Assembly (NCBI GenBank): GCA_003576945.1
Contig: QEVC01000002.1
Span: 5,792 to 69,791, forward strand
DNA length: 64,000 nucleotides
Source: Candidatus Microgenomates bacterium
GTDB taxonomy: Bacteria; Patescibacteriota; Microgenomatia; UBA1400; UBA12108
Direction: 5' to 3'
Position numbers and translations under genes: made by a program. Numbering within the stretch: position 1 is the stretch's first letter; every line of letters begins with the position of its first letter. The notes below the pieces were generated by a model. It ran no database searches. It was given only the letters and a program-made list of their open reading frames with translations, and was not told the DNA's origin. Below are positions 5,308-51,788 of this stretch, one piece after another.

Positions 5308-6339
5308 TCATTTTTTTGTAAAGTCAAAGTAATTTGGATATACCTCGATCTTATCAAATCCTCTTAAGGGCATAAAATCCAAATCAATTACACTATGTGG
5401 AGTCATTTGAGCTAGATCATATTGCGAAGGAGATAGTATCCTAGTATGAAACCCATTATCACCTTTGCGCTCTAATACTCCAACACCCACCCAATGTTTA
5501 GCAACCGAAGTATAAGTACTCCCAATACCGATTGAGTCTTCTTTTGGTAAAGTTGAAAGTATTACCCCGCGACCAAACTTGTCGTTAACAAGTATGTCCT
5601 GAGTAACAGCATACTCATAAAGAACTGCTCTTTTAACTAACCTAATTTTTTGATCATCGGTCGTTTCATGCCAAGGCTCAACTCCATTCCATTTAATATT
5701 TAACCAAGCTCTTCTAATATAGTCTGTTTGCTTTGCTTGATTCCACGAATAAAACCTCTCCTCAGCGTAGGTCATAGCTTTTTGTATCTCTTCTTCATAT
5801 TTAGATCTAGTTCTACCGTCTAGTTCAGTCAGTATATTGATTTTAAAATTATCTGGTAAGTAACGACTAAAGATACTTAGAATTTCCGAAAATCCTACTC
5901 TGTAGGTATCTACTTCTTCTTGCGATAAGTTATTGTGAAGTTGTGGGAGTATAGTTAAAAAATAGTAAGACAAATCAACACCTTGTTTGTATGTAGCGAC
6001 AATCGGTGATAAATACGCAGCTAGATAGACTATATTAAAAAATTCTGCCCAGTTTGGCATAGGTGAAGACTCAACGCGCCATAACTTATAGCATCCTTGA
6101 GCAAAAAATACTCTAATCGGTCGGCACTCCTTGATCGCGTTCGATACCTCTTTATCTACCAATGCCCTACACTCTTCCTCTATACGCCACTTACGATATT
6201 TTTTTGAAAATAATTTTGATTTAATATACTCTTCTAGTCCTACTTTTTTTAGTAAATTTATATCATCCTTACTAGGAATGTAGTTACCACTCTTATGCAA
6301 GAGATCTCTTAGGTAATTATTAGTCAATCCATCTCTCAT
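5308..6339 (-). CDS. hypothetical protein, no recognisable domain
   Basis: 343 aa. Co-directional and tightly spaced with 4711-5292. Immediately 3' of a tRNA-like gene. Confidence 0.4.
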   Translation of the reverse strand: MRDGLTNNYLRDLLHKSGNYIPSKDDINLLKKVGLEEYIKSKLFSKKYRKWRIEEECRALVDKEVSNAIKECRPIRVFFAQGCYKLWRVESSPMPNWAEFFNIVYLAAYLSPIVATYKQGVDLSYYFLTILPQLHNNLSQEEVDTYRVGFSEILSIFSRYLPDNFKINILTELDGRTRSKYEEEIQKAMTYAEERFYSWNQAKQTDYIRRAWLNIKWNGVEPWHETTDDQKIRLVKRAVLYEYAVTQDILVNDKFGRGVILSTLPKEDSIGIGSTYTSVAKHWVGVGVLERKGDNGFHTRILSPSQYDLAQMTPHSVIDLDFMPLRGFDKIEVYPNYFDFTKK

Positions 6340-6344
6340 ATTTG

Positions 6345-6418
6345 AGATGCGAGAAGGATTCGAACCTCCGTCTTTTCGTTTTACAACGAAATGCCTGAAC
6401 CAACTCGGCTATCGCATC
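6345..6418 (-). tRNA. atypical tRNA-like gene (GUA anticodon = Tyr-like, short variable arm, 8-nt anticodon loop or 6-bp stem)
   Basis: Reverse complement gives a perfect 7-bp acceptor stem (GATGCGA/TCGCATC) and T-arm GGAGG-TTCGAAT-CCTTC. The anticodon arm is an 18-nt perfect hairpin TTTCGTTGTAAAACGAAA, one nt longer than canonical. No encoded CCA. Confidence 0.6.
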
Positions 6419-7382: not shown

Positions 7383-8618
7383 CTAACTAAATATTGCTAT
7401 TGCTTCATCTATTGTATCATCCGCGTCACTTTTCTTATCCACAACTATCTTCTTTCCCTCCAAAAACTGTGCTTTCATCTGCATCCAGGGTGATTTTAAT
7501 TCTTCTGTGCCCTGCATTTTGACACTGCCACTTTCCATCTTAATATCTACATCTTTAATCGTCTGTTTAGTTGACTTACTCCCATTTTGATTACCAGACC
7601 TGCCGAATTGCTGATTATCACTTATCTGTCCCCAATCAATAATCACCATCTCAAGCAGTAATTCTGGCACTGGACTAATTGCCACCTTTCTCGCAACATC
7701 ATCTAGATTAAACACCAGTTTAATTAACTCTTTACTCTCACCCGCTAGAACGTGGTTTCTCAGTTCCTTCATCAAGGTCACAATTAAATAAACTAGGTCC
7801 ACCCCACGTGAACTAGCAAGATGCAGTTCGTCTAAGGCCACTTGACTATTTCGCTCAATTAACGCTTTTGTAAGAGCAGCAACGCTGTATCCCGAAACCC
7901 CCATTATTGCTTCTTCCATCTGAGCAAGCTCCACCTGATCTGTCTGCGACAACACTTTGTCCAAAATCTTCACTCCATCTCTAAACGAACCATCGACACT
8001 CCGTGCCAGGTAATCTAGTGCCTCCTCACTTACCCTCTTTCCTTCCCCACTTATAACTCTGGCAAAACTGCGCTTCATCTCATCTGGGGTTGCCTTCATA
8101 AATCCAACACTCACGCATCGACTCTGGATTGTCTCTGGCACCTTGTGGGCCTCTGTCGTACATAGGATAAAGATCGCGTGAGCTGGTGGCTCCTCCAAGG
8201 TCTTAAGAAGCGCATTAAATGCCTCAGTCGTCAGCATGTGCACTTCGTCAATGATATAGACCTTATATTTAAGCTCAGCTGGTGCCAATCTTATTTTCTC
8301 TTTTAGTTCTCGGATATCATCAATTCCGCGGTTACTGGCCGCATCAATCTCAATAAAATCTAAGCTCCCACCCGAGAGTATAGATTTACACGCTGAGCAT
8401 TCGTTGCACGGTTCCCCCAACTTTGTCTCGTTCTTCTCACAATTTACGATTCTCGACAATATTCTGGCCGAACTGGTCTTGCCTGCACCTCGTGGACCCG
8501 TAAATAAATATGCATGAGCCACTTCATTCGATTTAATTAGTTTGTAAAATGCCTCACGCACGCTGGTTAGATCAAGTTCTTCAACTTTCTTGGGACGATA
8601 TTTAAGATACAAACTCAT
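7383..8618 (-). CDS. dnaX: DNA polymerase III subunit gamma/tau (short form)
   Basis: Walker A 'GPRGAGKTSSARIL' and zinc module 'CNECSACKSI'. Confidence 0.9.
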   Translation of the reverse strand: MSLYLKYRPKKVEELDLTSVREAFYKLIKSNEVAHAYLFTGPRGAGKTSSARILSRIVNCEKNETKLGEPCNECSACKSILSGGSLDFIEIDAASNRGIDDIRELKEKIRLAPAELKYKVYIIDEVHMLTTEAFNALLKTLEEPPAHAIFILCTTEAHKVPETIQSRCVSVGFMKATPDEMKRSFARVISGEGKRVSEEALDYLARSVDGSFRDGVKILDKVLSQTDQVELAQMEEAIMGVSGYSVAALTKALIERNSQVALDELHLASSRGVDLVYLIVTLMKELRNHVLAGESKELIKLVFNLDDVARKVAISPVPELLLEMVIIDWGQISDNQQFGRSGNQNGSKSTKQTIKDVDIKMESGSVKMQGTEELKSPWMQMKAQFLEGKKIVVDKKSDADDTIDEAIAIFS

Positions 8619-9603: not shown

Positions 9604-9815
9604 TATTTTTTCTTGGCCGCTGCACGTTGCATACGATCCACATACTTTTTACGTCGAATTTCGTTATTACGTTCTTTACGTTTCATCGCATCAGTCTTGT
9701 GAAACTCACGGTCTCTCACTTCGTCAATGATATTTTCGTTCAGAACTTTTTTCTTAAATCGTTTGATCAAAGAATCTGCTGACTCATCTTTTTTTGCTTT
9801 GACTATGATTGGCAT
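9603..9815 (-). CDS. rpsU: 30S ribosomal protein S21
   Basis: 'MPIIVKAKKDESADSLIKRFKKKV...EFHKTDAMKRKERNNEIRRKK'. Confidence 0.9.
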   Translation of the reverse strand: MPIIVKAKKDESADSLIKRFKKKVLNENIIDEVRDREFHKTDAMKRKERNNEIRRKKYVDRMQRAAAKKK

Positions 9816-9820
9816 AAAAA

Positions 9821-10666
9821 TTAAAACACCTCCTTAACCAGCTCCACTACCTCATCTATTCCAAGGTGAGTAGGCTCTTTGGGACTCGATTTGTCCGACC
9901 CATTAAGTAGCATCTGACAAGATGGATGCAAAAACCATTGGTCAGGTCTATCGTGCTCTAGTATTTTATCATAAAGTACTGTTAGATCGATATTTTTCTC
10001 TGGCACCGCTTTAATCCGCATGTGGCCATAATCCGGATGTTTCAGTATAACAAGCGAATATCCTTGCTTCTGCGCGATCTTAATCGCCTCACTATTAGCC
10101 GACAACATCGCGATTCCTCGCCCCTTCTCCCAACTAAACTCAACACCCATTTTTATCTCTTCCTCTGCTTTTACTACCTGTTTAAGCCTCTGATAGACCC
10201 CATCTAAGTAAATAAAAACGTAGCGAGCCACCGCCTCATTATCCATAACTTGTAGGGTATGTAAGGATGGAATTACCTCGTGGAGTGTATAAGAGTAGCG
10301 GGTAGCCATGGGTTCATCCCAACCAGAATCCTCAAATCGATCAATCGCAAGCGAAAATTCTACCATCTGGCGAATCGCGGTATCACTTGGTGCTACTAAT
10401 CCTTGTGCTACTAAATGTTCATACACGAGCTTGGCCGCACACGTCTCATAGCCACCAGGTAGGTGGTGGTCAAATCGCCCATATCCCACATCCACATGTA
10501 TTACGTCAGGGTCAGTGTCTACCGGGAGGTTTTTATAAGTTGTGCTAGCAGGGACAAACTCTAGGTGAGCATCGCCATAGTGAGACTGATCAAACCTAAC
10601 TAAGAGCCAGAGTGAGGTAATAGCATCTAGATCTGGGTTTTTGTGGGTGACTAGTGTCTTGGCCAT
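9821..10666 (-). CDS. DHH-family phosphoesterase (nanoRNase-like, short)
   Basis: 'HKNPDLDAITS' and 'FDHH' motifs; 281 aa, apparently lacking a full DHHA1 domain. Confidence 0.55.
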   Translation of the reverse strand: MAKTLVTHKNPDLDAITSLWLLVRFDQSHYGDAHLEFVPASTTYKNLPVDTDPDVIHVDVGYGRFDHHLPGGYETCAAKLVYEHLVAQGLVAPSDTAIRQMVEFSLAIDRFEDSGWDEPMATRYSYTLHEVIPSLHTLQVMDNEAVARYVFIYLDGVYQRLKQVVKAEEEIKMGVEFSWEKGRGIAMLSANSEAIKIAQKQGYSLVILKHPDYGHMRIKAVPEKNIDLTVLYDKILEHDRPDQWFLHPSCQMLLNGSDKSSPKEPTHLGIDEVVELVKEVF

Positions 10667-10694
10667 ACACTCATTCTACAACTCAGCACGTGTC

Positions 10695-10723
10695 TTGACT
10701 ACCGCCAAGCAATGTCCTATAAT
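10695..10723 (+). promoter_or_regulatory. consensus sigma70-type promoter (TTGACT-N17-TATAAT)
   Basis: TTGACT at 10695-10700, 17-nt spacer, TATAAT at 10718-10723. A leader of about 160 nt precedes the ATG at 10886. Confidence 0.45.
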
Positions 10724-10885
10724 ACTATGAATGTTCACGCCTAGTGAGGTATCTGCCAATTATCATGTTCAAGGATATAACGACTTTGAACGTGCTCCAG
10801 ATAAAAAACAATTCTCTGGGGAGGATGTCAGGCATCTGTTCTACTCTTTTTAATAAGATCATTTACTAATAATACAAACCTATCC

Positions 10886-11559: not shown

Positions 11560-12558
11560 TCATGACATAACTCTAACCATCACCTTCGCGAGCTTGTCTG
11601 AGTCATGACGTACCATACTCCTGACAAGATTGTCCCCTTTTTCTTTTTTCACCTTCCCCTTTGCCAGTAGTTTTTCTCTAATTACTTGATACTTAGCACT
11701 CGGTACTTTCGTCTCGTCTAGATCATCCTCCACCCACTCTGCCCCCTCTTTTTTATACGCTTTTTCGACCGCCGGCTCAGTTGTCCTGTCTATGTTAACG
11801 ATGACATGAGTGAGGCGCGATAGTGGCAGATACCTACCTAAATCATTCAAATAATCGCTCGCCTTATAACCGTAGCTCTCTCCCCTCTTGGTCATCACAT
11901 TCATCACAAAGACGAGCTTGGCATAGCTCTTATTTATGGCCTCAGTTACTCCCCTAATCACCAAGTTGGCGACCGTATTGGTATAGAGATCACCTGGGCC
12001 GAGCACGATCAGATCGGCTTCTCTAATCGCCCGCTCAGCCTCAGGATCAATCTTAACCTGTGGAATGGTACGAAAACTCACGATCCGCTCTCGCCCTGTG
12101 GTCCCCTTCCCTGTATCTATCCCGTGCTCACCCAACACTTCTGTCCCGTCGGCATAGGTAGCAAGCAAGGACACCGTCTCATACGAAACTGGCAAAATCT
12201 TGCCGCGCACATCTAAGAGCTGTGCCGTCTGCTTTATCGCCTCACGCTGTGACCCTGTAATGTCTGAGACCGCCGCCATAAAGAGATTGCCAAACGTCAT
12301 TCCCGAGATCCCAACTCCTTGGTAGTAGCGGTAAGAAAATAGCTTGCGCAGTAGTCCTTCATTCTCCGATAATGCCACCATGCACTGCCTCACCCCAGAT
12401 GTTGGGAGTAGCCCAAACTCATCTCGCAGTACCTTATTGCTCCCCCCATCATCCGACATAGTAACAACAGCTGATATGTCGATGTCGTGGTATTTCTTTA
12501 ACCCACGCAAAACTGTGTAAGTCCCCGTCCCGCCGCCGATTACTACGATCCGCTTCAT
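11560..12558 (-). CDS. YvcK/CofD-like gluconeogenesis-factor family protein (UPF0052)
   Basis: 'RIVVIGGGTGTYTVLRGLK' N-terminus typical of the YvcK family. Confidence 0.75.
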   Translation of the reverse strand: MKRIVVIGGGTGTYTVLRGLKKYHDIDISAVVTMSDDGGSNKVLRDEFGLLPTSGVRQCMVALSENEGLLRKLFSYRYYQGVGISGMTFGNLFMAAVSDITGSQREAIKQTAQLLDVRGKILPVSYETVSLLATYADGTEVLGEHGIDTGKGTTGRERIVSFRTIPQVKIDPEAERAIREADLIVLGPGDLYTNTVANLVIRGVTEAINKSYAKLVFVMNVMTKRGESYGYKASDYLNDLGRYLPLSRLTHVIVNIDRTTEPAVEKAYKKEGAEWVEDDLDETKVPSAKYQVIREKLLAKGKVKKEKGDNLVRSMVRHDSDKLAKVMVRVMS

Positions 12559-12564
12559 ATGTTT

Positions 12565-12584
12565 CAGACAATCAGAAAACTCAG
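12565..12584. repeat. left arm of a perfect 20-bp inverted repeat (cagacaatcagaaaactcag) bracketing the four-helix-bundle gene; TCAGA-periodic flank
   Basis: Exact reverse complement of 13024-13043. TCAGA recurs every 8-16 nt through 12572-12628. Confidence 0.8.
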
Positions 12585-12604
12585 AACATCGGATTATCAG
12601 ATAT

Positions 12605-13000
12605 TCAGAATTTATCAGATCTCCAGATAGAATGTAATTTGTTGATCCTTTTTGAGAGTGTTTTATACTTAATAGCGAGATTCTCGATATCTTTTTGTAG
12701 TCTAGGTACTGCGTGATATATCGTTCTAAAGTGAGTTACCACTTCATCACTTGATCCAATGGAAATTTTCAAAAATCGCTTAAACTCTTTTTCGGATGAT
12801 CTTTTTGCAAACCCTTCAGAAATATTGGCAGAAATAGACTTAGCAGCACGTTTTAATTGGTTAATTGAGTCAGTCTCAGATTTAGGTAATTTTCGCAACA
12901 GGTCATATAAATGCTTAATTAAATCTAATGACTCTGTATACACACTAAGATCAGTGACGTCTCTTATCATTAACTTATAATACCAAATATTCTGGTTCAC
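12605..13000 (-). CDS. four-helix-bundle protein (23S rRNA intervening-sequence protein / Avd-like family)
   Basis: 'QLKRAAKSISANISEGFAKRSSEKEFKRFLKISIGSSDEVVTHF' is typical of TIGR02436. The track start is GTG; an ATG at 12968-12970 would give 121 aa. Confidence 0.8.
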   Translation of the reverse strand: MNQNIWYYKLMIRDVTDLSVYTESLDLIKHLYDLLRKLPKSETDSINQLKRAAKSISANISEGFAKRSSEKEFKRFLKISIGSSDEVVTHFRTIYHAVPRLQKDIENLAIKYKTLSKRINKLHSIWRSDKF

Positions 13001-13023
13001 CGACTCTCAGGCTCACTGATTCT

Positions 13024-13043
13024 CTGAGTTTTCTGATTGTCTG
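13024..13043. repeat. right arm of the 20-bp inverted repeat (ctgagttttctgattgtctg)
   Basis: Reverse complement of 12565-12584. The flank 13000-13043 is TCTG-periodic. Confidence 0.8.
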
Positions 13044-13048
13044 GAATG

Positions 13049-14125
13049 CTAGCTAAAAAAGATATCCTTAATCGTGATCACAATCAATAAGAGAATTAAT
13101 AGTCCCATTCCGACCGCGTTAACATACTGTTCCGCTTTGGCCACTCTCTTACGCCCGATCACCTTCTCTAGCCCCACCATGAGCAGCCTCCCACCATCTA
13201 GCGCTGGGATCGGTAGCAAATTGAAGATCGCCAGGTTTAGTGAGATTATCCCAACAAAACGGAGGGTTACATCCCAACCCATCGAGACAGCCTGCTGCCC
13301 CACCTTCACAACTTGTACTGGTCCACCTACATTCTTAATCAGCTCGGTCGGCTGCATAAAGGTTCGCAAAAATTCTCGACTCCAACCCATCGCTTCTTTA
13401 AATCCCTCTACAGTCCCAACAATTGGTGCTTGATACCACGGCAGTTTTTCATATTTAAAAATCGGTACAGTAGAAACCGCCACCCCCAGCGCTCCCTCAC
13501 CTACGGGTGGGTTTTCTCTTGGCACGACCGTAACCACTCGACTCTCGCCACTTCTCTCGCCATTAGCATCAACACTAGTTACCCAAAGTGTTACACTCAT
13601 CCCTTTGCGTTCTTTGATTAGGTCTACAAATTCACTCGAGTTCTTAATCTCAGTTTCGTCAATTTTATATACCACTTCCCCCGTCACAAGGTCAGCGATC
13701 GCAGCCGGCGAGTTGGGCAATACCTCCGAGATCATTACTTGCTCACCCACCTCTTTTGGCACTCCTTTTATTGAATAGATTGTTGAAAAAGCTAAGATGC
13801 CCACCACAAAATTAACAAACACGCCTGCCAGGATTACGAGTGCTCGCTGCCACGCAGGTTTTGCAAAGAACATTTTTTTACGCAAAAATGGGTTAACTTT
13901 TTCCCAGAGTGATGGGTCGTGATCCTCACCAGCTAGCCGCACAAATCCTCCAAGCGGAAGCCAGTTGAGGGTAAATTCAGTTTCTCGCCAGGTAAACAGT
14001 TTAAGCGCTTTTGGAGGTATCCCAATCCCAAATTCCTCAACCTTTACCCCAAAAATCTTAGCCACAATATAGTGCCCAAACTCATGAAGTAAAATGAGTA
14101 GCGACAAAAGTATAATTGTAGTCAT
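13049..14125 (-). CDS. rseP: site-2 protease RseP (M50 zinc metalloprotease with PDZ)
   Basis: 'HEFGHYIVAK' HExxH motif in a TM helix, PDZ region, LDGG motif. Confidence 0.9.
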   Translation of the reverse strand: MTTIILLSLLILLHEFGHYIVAKIFGVKVEEFGIGIPPKALKLFTWRETEFTLNWLPLGGFVRLAGEDHDPSLWEKVNPFLRKKMFFAKPAWQRALVILAGVFVNFVVGILAFSTIYSIKGVPKEVGEQVMISEVLPNSPAAIADLVTGEVVYKIDETEIKNSSEFVDLIKERKGMSVTLWVTSVDANGERSGESRVVTVVPRENPPVGEGALGVAVSTVPIFKYEKLPWYQAPIVGTVEGFKEAMGWSREFLRTFMQPTELIKNVGGPVQVVKVGQQAVSMGWDVTLRFVGIISLNLAIFNLLPIPALDGGRLLMVGLEKVIGRKRVAKAEQYVNAVGMGLLILLLIVITIKDIFFS

Positions 14126-34545: not shown

Positions 34546-36759
34546 TCAACCGCACACCGCAAAGCCGCACCCATAGCATTTGCGACACCCCTCCTCTATC
34601 GCCAGCTTGCCTCCACAATTGGGGCACTCCGACCCGATCTGGCTGTCTGATTTCTCTGATTTCCTGGTAATCTGAGTTTTCTGGTTGTCTGAATTCTCTG
34701 ACTTTCCCACATTTAGGACTTGCCCCTCTCTACTCCCATCTCGGTATACCGTTATTCCTTTACAGTGTAGTTCAGAGGCTTGATAGAAAACCTTAATCAC
34801 ATCATCCACCGTTGCGGTACTAGGTAAGTTAATGGTTTTTGACACCGCATTATCCGTGTATTTCTGAAAAGCTGCGAGCATGGCCACATGGTCCTCAGCA
34901 CTTAAATCCATCGCAGTGACAAAAACATCTCTAATCTCTTTGGGAATACTACTTATATGTTTAATACTGCCGTGTCGCGCGATCTCATCCATGAGTTCAG
35001 TCGAATATAGACCATTTACATGTTTGATCGCTTTAACCAGATCAGTGTTTACTTCGGGTAGGGTGTATTGACCCATGCTTTTTCTAAAGTAAGCGAGCGC
35101 AAAATGTGGCTCTATTCCCCCACTCGCATTCGTCATCATGCTAATAGTCCCAGTCGGTGCGATCGTCGTCACTGTCGCATTGCGAAAATGTTTATAGCCT
35201 CGCTTCTGCCAAAGAGAACCTTTGAAATTGGGGAAACTCCCCTTTTCCTTACCCAAGGCCGAAGATGTTTCCCAGCCAATTTTTTGCACAAATTTCATGA
35301 GTTTCTCAGCTAAGCTTAGTGCTTCTTTTGAGTTGTATGGAATATGCAATTTAACCAACATGTCAGCCCAGCCCATGACCCCTAAGCCTATCTTTCTATT
35401 TCCCCGTACAACTTCTGCCACTTTTTTAAGCGGGTACTCACAGACAGAGACCACATCATCTAACATTCGAACTGCAACGCGCACCGTCTCCTCTAACTTA
35501 CCCCAATCAATTCCCATTCCGGATTCACTGCTATACGGATTCACGGATTTACTATCATCTTTTACATGCACCGCCAAATTAATGCTTCCCAAATTACACG
35601 CTTCGTAAGACAAAAGTGGTTGCTCTCCACATAGGTTAACCGTCTCTAGTATTCCCACGTGTGGTGTGGGGTTATATTTATTAATCTCATCAACAAAAAT
35701 CAAACCTGGATCTCCATTTTTCCAAGCCATTCTGGCTGCTTCTTCCAGTATTCCTCGAGCCGAAACTCGTGCCGTTATCGCCCCATTACGTGGATTAATC
35801 AACTCCCACTCCTCATTATTTTTTGCTGCCTCCATAAATTTGTGGGTCACCGCGAGCGAGTAGTTAATATGGGGCAAGTTTGAGCCCGACTCTTTACAGT
35901 GAATAAAATCAATCACATCGGGGTGTGACACCGGCAGCGTTACCATATTTCCACTTCGTCTCTTGCCTGCCTGCAAATAGATATCTGAGGCATCGTTCAC
36001 GAGCTGCATGAGAGCTACTGGCCCACAAGCCGCACCCGAGGTCGTACTCACCCGATCATCCTTAGGTCGAATATGTCCAAAGGTAAACCCAACTCCTCCT
36101 CCATATTTTTTGAGTATCGAAGATTCTTTGAGAGATTCAAAGATCCCCTCGATATCGTCTGGCATCGGCATCACAAAACAGTTAGCCAGCTGATTATTGG
36201 GAGTCCCCGAGTTCGCGAGCGTCCTCCCACCAGGCATAAACCTCAGTTCTCGCATAATATGTTCAAACTTTTCTTGCCAAAGCTTTTTATCCTTCTTTTC
36301 GGCACTCGCCAAAAACTTGGCAGTTCGAGCAAACATTTCACCTACCGACTCCACTACTTCCCCGCTCTCATCTTTCCTAATATATTTTTCTCTAGCGACC
36401 GTTAATGCGTTTAGCGATAGTCCAACCTCATCATGAACTCCGAGTGCATGTTTTGCTGCTTCAACCTGTCTCTTCTTCTCTCTGTTTAAGATGTAGGCTT
36501 TCGCTGTTTTGTAATGCGATTTCTCAAGGAGTACTCGCTCCACCATATCCCCAATCTCCGCGCTCGTTACCCGCCTGATCCTCCCATACTGTTTTTTTAG
36601 CCGCTCCACCGCCTCATGCGCTAGTTCAACTGCTAGCTTATGATCTGTCCCACCAACATCTTGTGCCGCGAGGAAGATCGAGTCTGCTATCTTACCCACA
36701 TCTAATATTTGCTCACTCTCGTTCCGCTTTAAAACCGTAACCTTATTTGTTTTTTGCAT
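34546..36759 (-). CDS. nrdJ: adenosylcobalamin-dependent (class II) ribonucleotide reductase with ATP-cone and C-terminal zinc ribbon
   Basis: ATP-cone N-terminus, 'ANCFVM', 'NLCGEQPL', C-terminal 'CPNCGG..CRKCYGCG'. The linker 'SENSDNQKTQITRKSEKSDSQ' is encoded by a TCAGA-periodic repeat (34637-34706). An ACGGATTC repeat lies at 35521-35556. Confidence 0.85.
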   Translation of the reverse strand: MQKTNKVTVLKRNESEQILDVGKIADSIFLAAQDVGGTDHKLAVELAHEAVERLKKQYGRIRRVTSAEIGDMVERVLLEKSHYKTAKAYILNREKKRQVEAAKHALGVHDEVGLSLNALTVAREKYIRKDESGEVVESVGEMFARTAKFLASAEKKDKKLWQEKFEHIMRELRFMPGGRTLANSGTPNNQLANCFVMPMPDDIEGIFESLKESSILKKYGGGVGFTFGHIRPKDDRVSTTSGAACGPVALMQLVNDASDIYLQAGKRRSGNMVTLPVSHPDVIDFIHCKESGSNLPHINYSLAVTHKFMEAAKNNEEWELINPRNGAITARVSARGILEEAARMAWKNGDPGLIFVDEINKYNPTPHVGILETVNLCGEQPLLSYEACNLGSINLAVHVKDDSKSVNPYSSESGMGIDWGKLEETVRVAVRMLDDVVSVCEYPLKKVAEVVRGNRKIGLGVMGWADMLVKLHIPYNSKEALSLAEKLMKFVQKIGWETSSALGKEKGSFPNFKGSLWQKRGYKHFRNATVTTIAPTGTISMMTNASGGIEPHFALAYFRKSMGQYTLPEVNTDLVKAIKHVNGLYSTELMDEIARHGSIKHISSIPKEIRDVFVTAMDLSAEDHVAMLAAFQKYTDNAVSKTINLPSTATVDDVIKVFYQASELHCKGITVYRDGSREGQVLNVGKSENSDNQKTQITRKSEKSDSQIGSECPNCGGKLAIEEGCRKCYGCGFAVCG
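34637..34706. repeat. TCAGA/TCTGA-periodic element half-copy inside nrdJ
   Basis: Contains ctgagttttctggttgtctg (34672-34691), a 19/20 match to the four-helix-bundle flanking IR. Confidence 0.7.
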
Positions 36760-36857
36760 AATTCAAAATACTCGATACTAAATACTGTGACTCAGTCTAT
36801 CCATCCTACCGGACAAAACCCAACTCCTGCAATATTACAAAGTGGTACAGTAGAAGC

Positions 36858-36985
36858 TTTCAGACAACCGGAATACTCGGAAAGTCAGAAATCCAGATAT
36901 TCGGAGATCCAGATTTTCCGCTTATCTGATTATCCGACACTCTGGTTCACTGAGTTTTCTGATTGTCTATTACTCTCTGATTTTT
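36858..36985. repeat. TCAGA/TCTGA-periodic imperfect hairpin element (ORF-less copy) at the topA 3' end / nrdJ upstream region
   Basis: Left half is CAGA-periodic, right half TCTG-periodic. ctgagttttctgattgtct at 36951-36969 is identical to 13024-13042. The topA stop codon (36930) lies inside it. Confidence 0.7.
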
Positions 36986-50765: not shown

Positions 50766-50816
50766 CCATTATACCTCCCTTGTCCAGTCCTAGCCCTCCC
50801 GCTATACTAGCCACAT

Positions 50817-51788
50817 ATGTCGCCTCTTATCTTTTTTGGCTCCGATCGTTTTAGTGCCGTCGTACTAAGTGAGCTAATCAGTCAAAATCACGCTCCAACA
50901 CTAGTAGTCACCGACCAACCAAAACCTGCCCGCAATACTTCGCATAGCGATGCAGGCGGGCCCAAAGGAAAGCAAGGTATTCTTAGTCCCAACGAAGTCG
51001 AAACTCTCGCCAAAACGCAAGACATAAAAATATTATATTATCAAGACAACAACGAAGAATTGATCAAATATATACAACATTCAAAATACAACATACAAAA
51101 TACCAATCTAACTGGCCTCTCTGCCTCTTTCCCCCACCTCTTCCCCGCCGACTTTATCAGTTTGTTTAGCGGTCATCTCTATAATCTCCACCCCTCCCTC
51201 CTCCCACAGTACCGCAATGTTGCACCAGGTCCTTACGCCATCATCATGGGCGATAAAGAGACCGGGATCACCCTCCAGCATATCGACGAGCGTATCGATA
51301 CTGGCAGTATCATCGCCCAGCAGTCAGCTCCCATTCATCCCTCCGATACCTCTACCACCCTCCTCAACCGACTTTTTACCAAGGGTGCTGAAATCTTTAT
51401 TCAGCATTTATCGGACGGATTTACGGATTTACGGATTAACAGATTTACGAATCAACTAATCTTTACCCGCAAGCTCACCCGCCAGTCTGGCTACATCGAG
51501 TGGGACATCGTCCAAAAGCTACTTCAAGGTCGGACCTTGAAGGTGGGTGACACAGTCAACCCCCTAATCCATCTCCGTCTCACCCATCATCCAGAGAGAA
51601 CAGAGAACATCCTCCCCGACCTAATCCGTGGCCTCAACCCATATGAGCGAGTCTGGACAGTAGCAAAAACCAAAAAAGGAGAACTCCAGCTCACACTATC
51701 CCTCTCACCCAACGGCGAAATTATGGTCCTAATCCCTGGCAAGCCAAAACCAATTCTCTATACTGATTTTGTAAAGTATTATCTCTAA
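50817..51788 (+). CDS. fmt: methionyl-tRNA formyltransferase
   Basis: 'NLHPSLLPQYRNVAPGPYAIIMGDKETGITLQHIDERIDTGSII'. The inter-domain linker carries the ACGGATTT tandem repeat (51412-51452) and the 21-bp palindrome (51522-51542). Confidence 0.8.
   Translation: MSPLIFFGSDRFSAVVLSELISQNHAPTLVVTDQPKPARNTSHSDAGGPKGKQGILSPNEVETLAKTQDIKILYYQDNNEELIKYIQHSKYNIQNTNLTGLSASFPHLFPADFISLFSGHLYNLHPSLLPQYRNVAPGPYAIIMGDKETGITLQHIDERIDTGSIIAQQSAPIHPSDTSTTLLNRLFTKGAEIFIQHLSDGFTDLRINRFTNQLIFTRKLTRQSGYIEWDIVQKLLQGRTLKVGDTVNPLIHLRLTHHPERTENILPDLIRGLNPYERVWTVAKTKKGELQLTLSLSPNGEIMVLIPGKPKPILYTDFVKYYL

Follow-up and report, generated by a model that had tools for sequence, protein, structure and literature searches.

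Anatomy of the cassette between rseP and cofD

The 64,000-nucleotide stretch analysed here, referred to as the window (contig QEVC01000002.1 of Candidatus Microgenomates bacterium, positions 5,792 to 69,791), carries on its minus strand a 485-bp cassette (12562..13046) composed, in the sense of its gene, of a repeat-bearing 5′ arm, a promoter-like box, an open reading frame (ORF) for a four-helix-bundle (4HB) protein and a 3′ arm. The 4HB gene (12605..12970, minus strand) encodes 121 aa and belongs to the S23p / 23S_rRNA_IVP / TIGR02436 family. It shares its orientation with both neighbours, an M50/RseP gene (rseP; 13049-14125, minus strand) and a CofD/YvcK-family gene (cofD; 11560-12558, minus strand), and the cassette fills the interval between them almost exactly, starting a few bases past the rseP stop and ending 3 nt short of the cofD/yvcK ATG. 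No rRNA was found within the 64-kb window, and the placement between yvcK and rseP, outside rRNA, proposed in an earlier note made from the sequence alone, is thereby confirmed. The window holds no second 4HB gene, and the interval 12450-13150 gave no Rfam match at E≤1 (no group I intron core and no other known RNA).

The two ends of the cassette form an inverted repeat that is perfect over 20 nt, with CAGACAATCAGAAAACTCAG at 12565-12584 and its exact reverse complement at 13024-13043, and that reaches 29 nt at 90% complementarity (12562-12590 / 13018-13046). The earlier note had reported the perfect 20-bp repeat, and it is exact at these positions; even with ≤3 mismatches allowed, the 20-mer had no occurrence in 100 dinucleotide-preserving shuffles of the window. 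Its two copies form the outer portions of longer, degenerate runs of 8-10-nt CAGA/CGGA units (12562-12630 and 12988-13046). In gene sense, the 5′ arm (12988..13046, minus strand) consists of about seven TCRGAnnn units, CCAGACAA TCAGAAAAC TCAGAGAA TCAGTGAGCC TGAGAG TCGGTGAA CCAGAATA, among them the perfect 20-mer at 13024-13043. The 3′ arm (12562..12630, minus strand) is an inverted array of TCRGAnnn units that includes the copy of the 20-mer at 12565-12584; it runs into the end of the ORF, where its inner units encode the last 4HB codons (WRSDKF*). The 20-mer is not private to the cassette, as copies with one mismatch lie at 34672-34691 and 36950-36969.

Across about 70 cassettes, the unit consensus is T-C-R-G-A plus three or four bases that are mostly A, T or G; the commonest spacing is 8 nt, followed by 9 and then 10 nt, and after reverse-complementing the 3′ arm the unit reads the same in the two arms. 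Conservation within the arms is highest in the outermost units (GAAAACTCRG). Folding of the sense RNA of 12550-13055 pairs the arms as an outer stem in both the minimum free energy and the centroid structures, in line with the earlier expectation that they would form a stem enclosing the ORF. No terminator-like sites were found in the arms. An exact-pattern scan of genome contigs for the 20-mer returned one relevant relative (L007; loci are designated by L and a number); the other eight matches are single matches in proteobacterial metagenome-assembled genomes, mostly Pseudomonadales, and the one inspected (L010) lies in what seems to be ordinary, probably coding, sequence without arrays. Two short-read Logan contigs of the same species (L001 and L002) start at the 5′ arm of the cassette, either inside it or just beyond it, and such assembly breaks fit an arm sequence that is repeated elsewhere in the genome.

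The assignment of the gene to the 23S intervening-sequence (IVS)/Avd family of four-helix-bundle proteins, also claimed earlier, is borne out by matches to PF05635 (4e-21, 75.7 bits, cut-off 33.8) and TIGR02436 (8.7e-22, 77.4 bits, cut-off 24); PF05635 is likewise matched by all 38 of the 38 aligned homologues. The mechanically called ORF is 131 aa long with a GTG start at 13000, whereas the conserved and publicly annotated form has 121 aa and starts with the ATG at 12970. We take the latter as the true start, because the several hundred homologues are mostly exactly 121 aa long and begin with MIRDV. Within the subfamily, mean column identity is 77% and length is nearly constant; among homologues for which dS is computable, dN/dS is about 0.11, synonymous sites being saturated between the window gene and other cassettes. 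From these sequence comparisons, the 4HB ORF is judged to be under purifying selection and to encode a working protein.

A monomeric AlphaFold2 model based on the 38 homologues gives a four-helix bundle with high confidence (pLDDT 91). Its best Foldseek matches in the PDB are 2GSC (XCC0516; TM 0.80-0.86) and 2RLD (BT_0352), followed by the Avd proteins of diversity-generating retroelements (DGRs), 8UB7 and 4DWL, at a TM-score of about 0.7 and about 6-12% identity in the structural alignments; hmmsearch against the PDB also finds 2gsc, at 5.7e-12. A conserved R-x4-H motif (KRLNKLH) in the last helix prompted HEPN as a candidate assignment, which was rejected as the protein has no HEPN or nuclease Pfam match at E≤1 and none among the PDB folds. 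No nuclease or recombinase family was matched in Pfam.

Upstream of the gene, an extended −10 promoter-like box (TGGTATTAT; 12977..12985, minus strand) ends 7 nt before the A of the ATG. The box emerged from an alignment of the 60 nt upstream of the start codons of 66 non-redundant cassettes, of which 50 carry TGnTAnnnT with its last T 7-8 nt ahead of the A of the ATG (0.5% of shuffles) and 59 have the TAnnnT core at that position (14% of shuffles). It is found in both rRNA-borne and free-standing cassettes. No Shine-Dalgarno-like sequence is evident by eye in the 60-nt upstream interval. A simple sigma-70 scan does not report the minus-strand box of the window, because the scan requires a −35 hexamer. 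Judged from its spacing, the geometry of the box implies a candidate promoter for a leaderless mRNA. With a leaderless promoter of its own, the 4HB protein could therefore be expressed even from within an rRNA gene or an intron, and a transcript beginning at the ATG would lack the 5′ arm.

Empty sites and copies in other contexts

All contigs of the same species, recognized by an identical 4HB protein, read rpsB-tsf-rseP-4HB-cofD. In the closest relative found (L110/L111; CofD 87% identical), rseP and cofD lie 156 nt apart, and the spacer contains neither a 4HB gene nor CAGA arrays; in two further relatives (L112, CofD 78%; L113/L114, 74%) the two genes overlap by ATGA, again with no 4HB gene. 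The remaining gene row around rseP-cofD is conserved in L110-L114, and no remnant arrays were seen at these empty rseP-cofD sites. Because relatives lack the 4HB gene, and two of them retain the ATGA overlap, the cassette is an insertion and not a conserved member of the operon: it is a lineage-specific insertion into a conserved rpsB-tsf-rseP-cofD row, whose original rseP-cofD junction was tight and probably translationally coupled. Among the outcomes that would speak against a cassette, the earlier note had named a 4HB gene conserved between yvcK and rseP at the same spacing in distant relatives without the inverted repeat; the three relatives lack the gene, the opposite of that outcome.

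A metagenome scan returned 80 loci, of which 78 could be tested for flanking arms. These approximately 80 loci encode homologues at 50-80% identity with the same kind of arms; the flanking inverted repeat is well above shuffled controls in 50 of the 78, and by eye nearly all show unit arrays. Unit arrays number 131 in 832 kb, as against 0-3 in shuffles. Cassettes whose protein is 64-75% identical occur in unrelated contexts, next to pilus genes (L021) and in the gap between a gene for a 720-760-aa protein and mreB (L022-L028), each flanked by inverted arrays. The arms of L021 form a perfect 23-nt repeat, TTCAGACAACCGGAAAACTCAGA, that differs from the window repeat at two positions, with both differences matched by compensating changes on the opposite arm. 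In the neighbourhood of the mreB-adjacent cassettes, small ORFs with Hint/intein-splicing matches (L022 1793-2440 and L025 3394-3765) lie upstream of the large protein that precedes them; they may represent another selfish element.

Many of the cassettes from the scan are borne by rRNA operons, where they were placed by Rfam and by BLAST against the E. coli rrn operon. Within the 23S gene, cassettes are found at about E. coli position 2500 (L031, L032, L075-L080, L083), after about 2584 (L045), at about 2593-2603 (L057, L058, L064, L074) and at about 2660 (L053), all in domain V. One lies in the 16S gene at about position 790 (L030), and others just 3′ of the 16S gene in the 16S-23S spacer (L038, L063/65/66, L088). 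The suggestion that the cassette can also land in rRNA thus holds for the cassette family, as homologues with the same kind of arms are present in 23S, 16S and spacer. The inserts in 23S and 16S genes measure about 715-840 nt, equivalent to the cassette plus roughly 300 nt, and at three independent 23S sites the cassette is followed immediately on its 3′ side by a group I intron core: L045 859-1075 (68 bits), L058 1082-1306 (29 bits, E=2.8e-5) and L075 1162-1410 (21.7 bits, E=0.004). The 23S cassettes therefore appear to ride in or beside group I introns and not at the classical helix 25/45 IVS sites, and the three intron cores suggest that the cassette occupies the place usually held by homing endonuclease genes. 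By protein identity, the nearest loci to the window protein are L021 in a protein-gene context (75%), L030 in 16S (72%), L031 in 23S (70%) and L038 in the spacer (68%), and rRNA and non-rRNA copies are intermixed.

The arrays of L077 (9760-10811) are nested, with an outer pair at 9761-9796 / 10776-10811 and an inner pair at 9932-9967 / 10365-10400 that encloses the 4HB gene. Between the inner and outer arrays lie about 375 nt, partly GC-rich (10400-10776), with no Rfam match at E≤1.

Insertions of this kind in rRNA are not without precedent. In bacteria of the Candidate Phyla Radiation (CPR), 23S_rRNA_IVP ORFs have been described as scattered across several 16S and 23S insertion sites and as uncharacterised, in the part of the report available to us (Tsurumaki et al. 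2024, PMC11270868), which cites an earlier source on CPR rRNA insertions (Brown et al. 2015, as cited in PMC11270868). The rRNA-borne loci found here evidently belong to the same class. The shared phylum and protein family and the distribution of ORFs over several 16S/23S sites are common to both; in contrast, the available part of PMC11270868 describes rRNA copies only, with no mention of free-standing copies, array arms, a promoter box or ORF-less derivatives.

ORF-less hairpins and absorbed arrays

The unit arrays also occur without the 4HB gene. At 36857..36980 (minus strand), a 5′ arm is followed directly by a 3′ arm, and this ORF-less hairpin encodes the last 16 codons of topA (SESNRQSENSVNQSVG) and its stop; its RNA fold has a z of about −3. 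The hairpin is identical in L115, from assembly GCA_025993845.1, which also carries an identical 4HB gene (L012). A more distant relative (L116) has no hairpin, its topA ending in ...WKLPTKPVVAEA, followed by a 57-nt spacer and the reductase gene. The ORF-less derivatives thus behave as insertions as well. ORF-less members in L007 form long interrupted hairpins (z=−6 to −7).

A solo array in a single orientation lies at 34628..34700 (minus strand), with no hairpin potential on folding. It is translated as a low-complexity linker, SENSDNQKTQITRKSEKSDSQ, of a class II, B12-dependent ribonucleotide reductase (ORF 34546-36759), where it joins the catalytic domain to the C-terminal zinc-ribbon. Some reductase homologues at 78-86% identity have similar linkers (SDNQKTQ..RKSEKSD), whereas the 92%-identical reductase from GCA_025993845.1, the assembly in which the 4HB gene and the topA hairpin are identical to those of the window, has a linker of unrelated sequence. 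A run of 8-nt units (cggatttacggatttacggattaacagattt) at 51412-51443, inside a 325-aa ORF (50811-51785, plus strand) and translated as ..SDGFTDLRINRFTNQ.., may represent a further array, of a related unit, taken up into coding sequence, or may have arisen by chance.

Hairpins without an ORF are also found in 23S genes of relatives: in L083 at 7533-7667 (between E. coli positions 1703 and 1770, which we take to be the helix 63 region) and at 5927-5996 (between 517 and 667), and in L074 at 1898-1965 (after 2723); one more lies upstream of the 23S gene in L083 (4332-4396). Those within the variable regions of 23S look like repeat-derived expansion segments or short IVSs.

Interpretation and alternative explanations

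These observations support the view of the feature as a free-standing, IVS-type 4HB cassette that has been relocated between rRNA and protein-gene spacers, and it is probably one member of a family of such small cassettes, each self-contained and able to relocate, in Microgenomates (Patescibacteria). In the sense of the gene, such a cassette reads as a 5′ arm of four to eight TCRGAnnn units, the extended −10 box, the 121-aa 4HB gene and the inverted 3′ arm. Translation of the 4HB protein would proceed from a leaderless mRNA started at the cassette's own promoter. In host RNA that reads through the cassette (pre-rRNA, an intron or the rseP-cofD mRNA), the arms would pair into a long imperfect stem, which may seal off the insert and leave the host RNA able to fold. 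By analogy with the IVSs of Coxiella and Leptospira, the stem would probably be cut by RNase III, and at the present locus this cut would separate the rseP and cofD messages; no RNase III signature was found in the window sequence, which says nothing on the rest of the genome. Our best guess for the 4HB protein is that it binds the repeat arrays, as RNA or as DNA.

Several points weigh against this interpretation. The promoter, the leaderless mRNA, the paired stem and its cleavage by RNase III are predictions from sequence, and, if the 4HB mRNA begins at the ATG and so lacks the 5′ arm, a stem could form in read-through transcripts only. Complementarity of the aligned arms is modest family-wide (76% Watson-Crick), and non-cognate arms pair almost as well as cognate ones. 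The preferences expected of a sense RNA are trends only: among transition mismatches, G.U outnumbers A.C by 207 to 169 (p=0.056), and the duplex is energetically better on the sense strand in 40 of 63 cases (p=0.08). No target-site duplication is evident at the window site, where a possible CAT on both sides, noted by eye for the window cassette only, is too short to count. The 4HB gene is the sole ORF, no transposase or recombinase accompanies it, and none recurs among the neighbours in three other contexts and the same-species contigs. The 64-kb window has one ORF-bearing copy and the site is fixed within the species, so movement is rare or ancient at that scale. The rRNA-borne copies come from loci of relatives and not from the window genome itself, and the non-rRNA class used in the intermixing analysis includes short contigs of unclassifiable context.

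Alternatively, the arms may act as DNA, either as terminal inverted repeats or as iteron-like TCAGAAAA arrays with an 8-9-bp protein-binding motif, which a host or element factor, perhaps the 4HB protein, would recognise in transposition or maintenance, with RNA pairing incidental. This account differs from the one above only in the purpose of the arms; we regard it as unlikely, yet as a live and non-exclusive option. T-C-R-G-A is conserved at a fixed 8-9-nt period in both arms, which is more than pairing needs, the outermost GAAAACTCRG units are the best conserved, like transposon ends, and solo arrays and ORF-less hairpins exist. Cognate arms are more complementary than non-cognate ones, which come close to them (mean pairing score 32.3 vs 26.2), indicating that much of the complementarity comes from the shared unit. 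On top of this, however, there is some partner-specific co-variation, since the cognate partner ranks first in 8 of 65 cases (about 1 expected) and L021 shows compensating changes. The excess of G.U over A.C is not significant and so does not decide between an RNA and a DNA role, although its direction leans to sense RNA. Location inside rRNA and introns favours a need for closure at the RNA level, and a DNA-level role is also disfavoured by the lack of an accompanying transposase or recombinase and of a target-site duplication evident at the window site. A bolder and doubtful extension holds that TCRGAnnn-array hairpins together with the 4HB gene constitute an unrecognised class of mobile element, with the 4HB protein as mobility or maintenance factor and the ORF-less hairpins as non-autonomous derivatives in rRNA variable helices, gene ends and coding linkers. 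The protein may then bind the arrays, much as Avd binds nucleic acid and reverse transcriptase (RT) in DGRs, and so help the hairpin to be copied or inserted into RNA or DNA. Were this true, the 30-year-old question of the purpose of the IVS ORF would be answered and many thousands of orphan 4HB genes would gain a role.

Two further explanations are less likely still. An ordinary, immobile resident of the rseP-cofD operon, flanked by regulatory or terminator hairpins and unrelated to rRNA elements, would share the orientation of its neighbours and be fixed at its site in every same-species contig, as is the case here; it is nevertheless very improbable, given that the gene is absent at this site in three relatives (with rseP/cofD overlap in two), that the same ORF and arms recur in unrelated contexts and in rRNA, and that the arms contain no terminator-like site. 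Least credible of all is a decayed DGR of which the 4HB gene would be the leftover Avd. DGRs are common in CPR bacteria and the fold resembles Avd (8UB7, 4DWL; TM-score about 0.7), but sequence and fold are far nearer to the non-DGR proteins 2GSC and 2RLD, and the gene is under purifying selection with conserved arms and a promoter box of its own. No RT was found among the precomputed Pfam annotations of same-species contigs, which cover about 5 kb on the upstream side of the 4HB gene and 10 kb on its downstream side, and no RVT family in those of the flanking genes in three other cassette contexts. Nor are there direct repeats of at least 35 nt within ±10 kb (window 2500-23000) that could resemble a template repeat/variable repeat (TR/VR) pair, and the earlier statement that the element is not a DGR stands. 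Beyond the four-helix-bundle fold and the Pfam family, the element has little in common with DGR Avd: it lacks RT and TR/VR, identity is about 6-12% and its genomic logic is entirely different.

The relocating cassette is most readily compared with the S23p IVSs. The IVS of Coxiella measures 428-444 nt, encloses an S23p ORF within a terminal stem of 28 bp and undergoes RNase III cleavage in vitro; the ORF is reported as decaying and untranslated in vivo, and a mobile-element origin of the Coxiella and Leptospira IVSs has long been proposed, their distribution suggesting horizontal spread (PMC4990558). The window cassette is similar in size (485 bp) and in its enclosure of a PF05635-family ORF by a predicted terminal stem of about 28 bp. 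Whereas those IVSs lie in helix 45 of 23S and are excised by RNase III, the window copy lies between protein genes, and since it does not reside in 23S it is not a member of the classical IVS group. It also differs in its TCRGAnnn array arms and in the extended −10 box at leaderless distance, and the ORF of its family is under purifying selection, unlike the decaying ORF of Coxiella.

Homing endonuclease genes offer another parallel, as small ORF cassettes found beside group I cores in rRNA and also free-standing, with ORF-containing and ORF-less forms at the same sites; the 4HB protein, in contrast, has no recognisable nuclease domain, and the inverted arrays belong to the cassette only. With REP/BIME, Correia and ERIC hairpin repeats and miniature inverted-repeat transposable elements (MITEs), the family shares short dispersed hairpins at gene ends that are insertion-polymorphic and sometimes absorbed into coding sequence, but it differs in arms of tandem 8-9-nt units, in a 4HB gene instead of a transposase or RAYT, and in copies within rRNA. 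Terminal inverted repeats and presence/absence polymorphism, both features of transposons and MITEs, are found for the cassette and, as regards polymorphism, for the ORF-less hairpin as well.

ORF-bearing intervening sequences in rRNA have been known since the early 1990s; to our knowledge, nobody has shown movement of an IVS, expression of its ORF from inside rRNA or a role for its protein. To judge from the searchable literature, five features are new: free-standing copies whose orthologous sites are empty in relatives, arms built as unit arrays, a conserved promoter box of the leaderless type, group I introns accompanying the cassette in 23S, and ORF-less derivatives extending into coding sequence. 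If the proposed relocation is correct, the "intervening sequence" elements of rRNA would belong to a wider family that moves around the genome. The locus and its relatives supply the anatomy of the element, filled and empty orthologous sites and a link among rRNA-borne, intron-associated and free-standing copies, with which the mobile-element hypothesis for IVSs becomes testable. They also offer a possible explanation for many unexplained "four helix bundle protein" genes in CPR genomes and indicate one origin for the rRNA expansion hairpins and the low-complexity protein tails of very small genomes.

Elsewhere in the window, a tRNA gene at 6344-6418 (minus strand) is returned by ARAGORN with undetermined identity and a four-base anticodon (gtaa), and by Rfam as an ordinary tRNA (58 bits).

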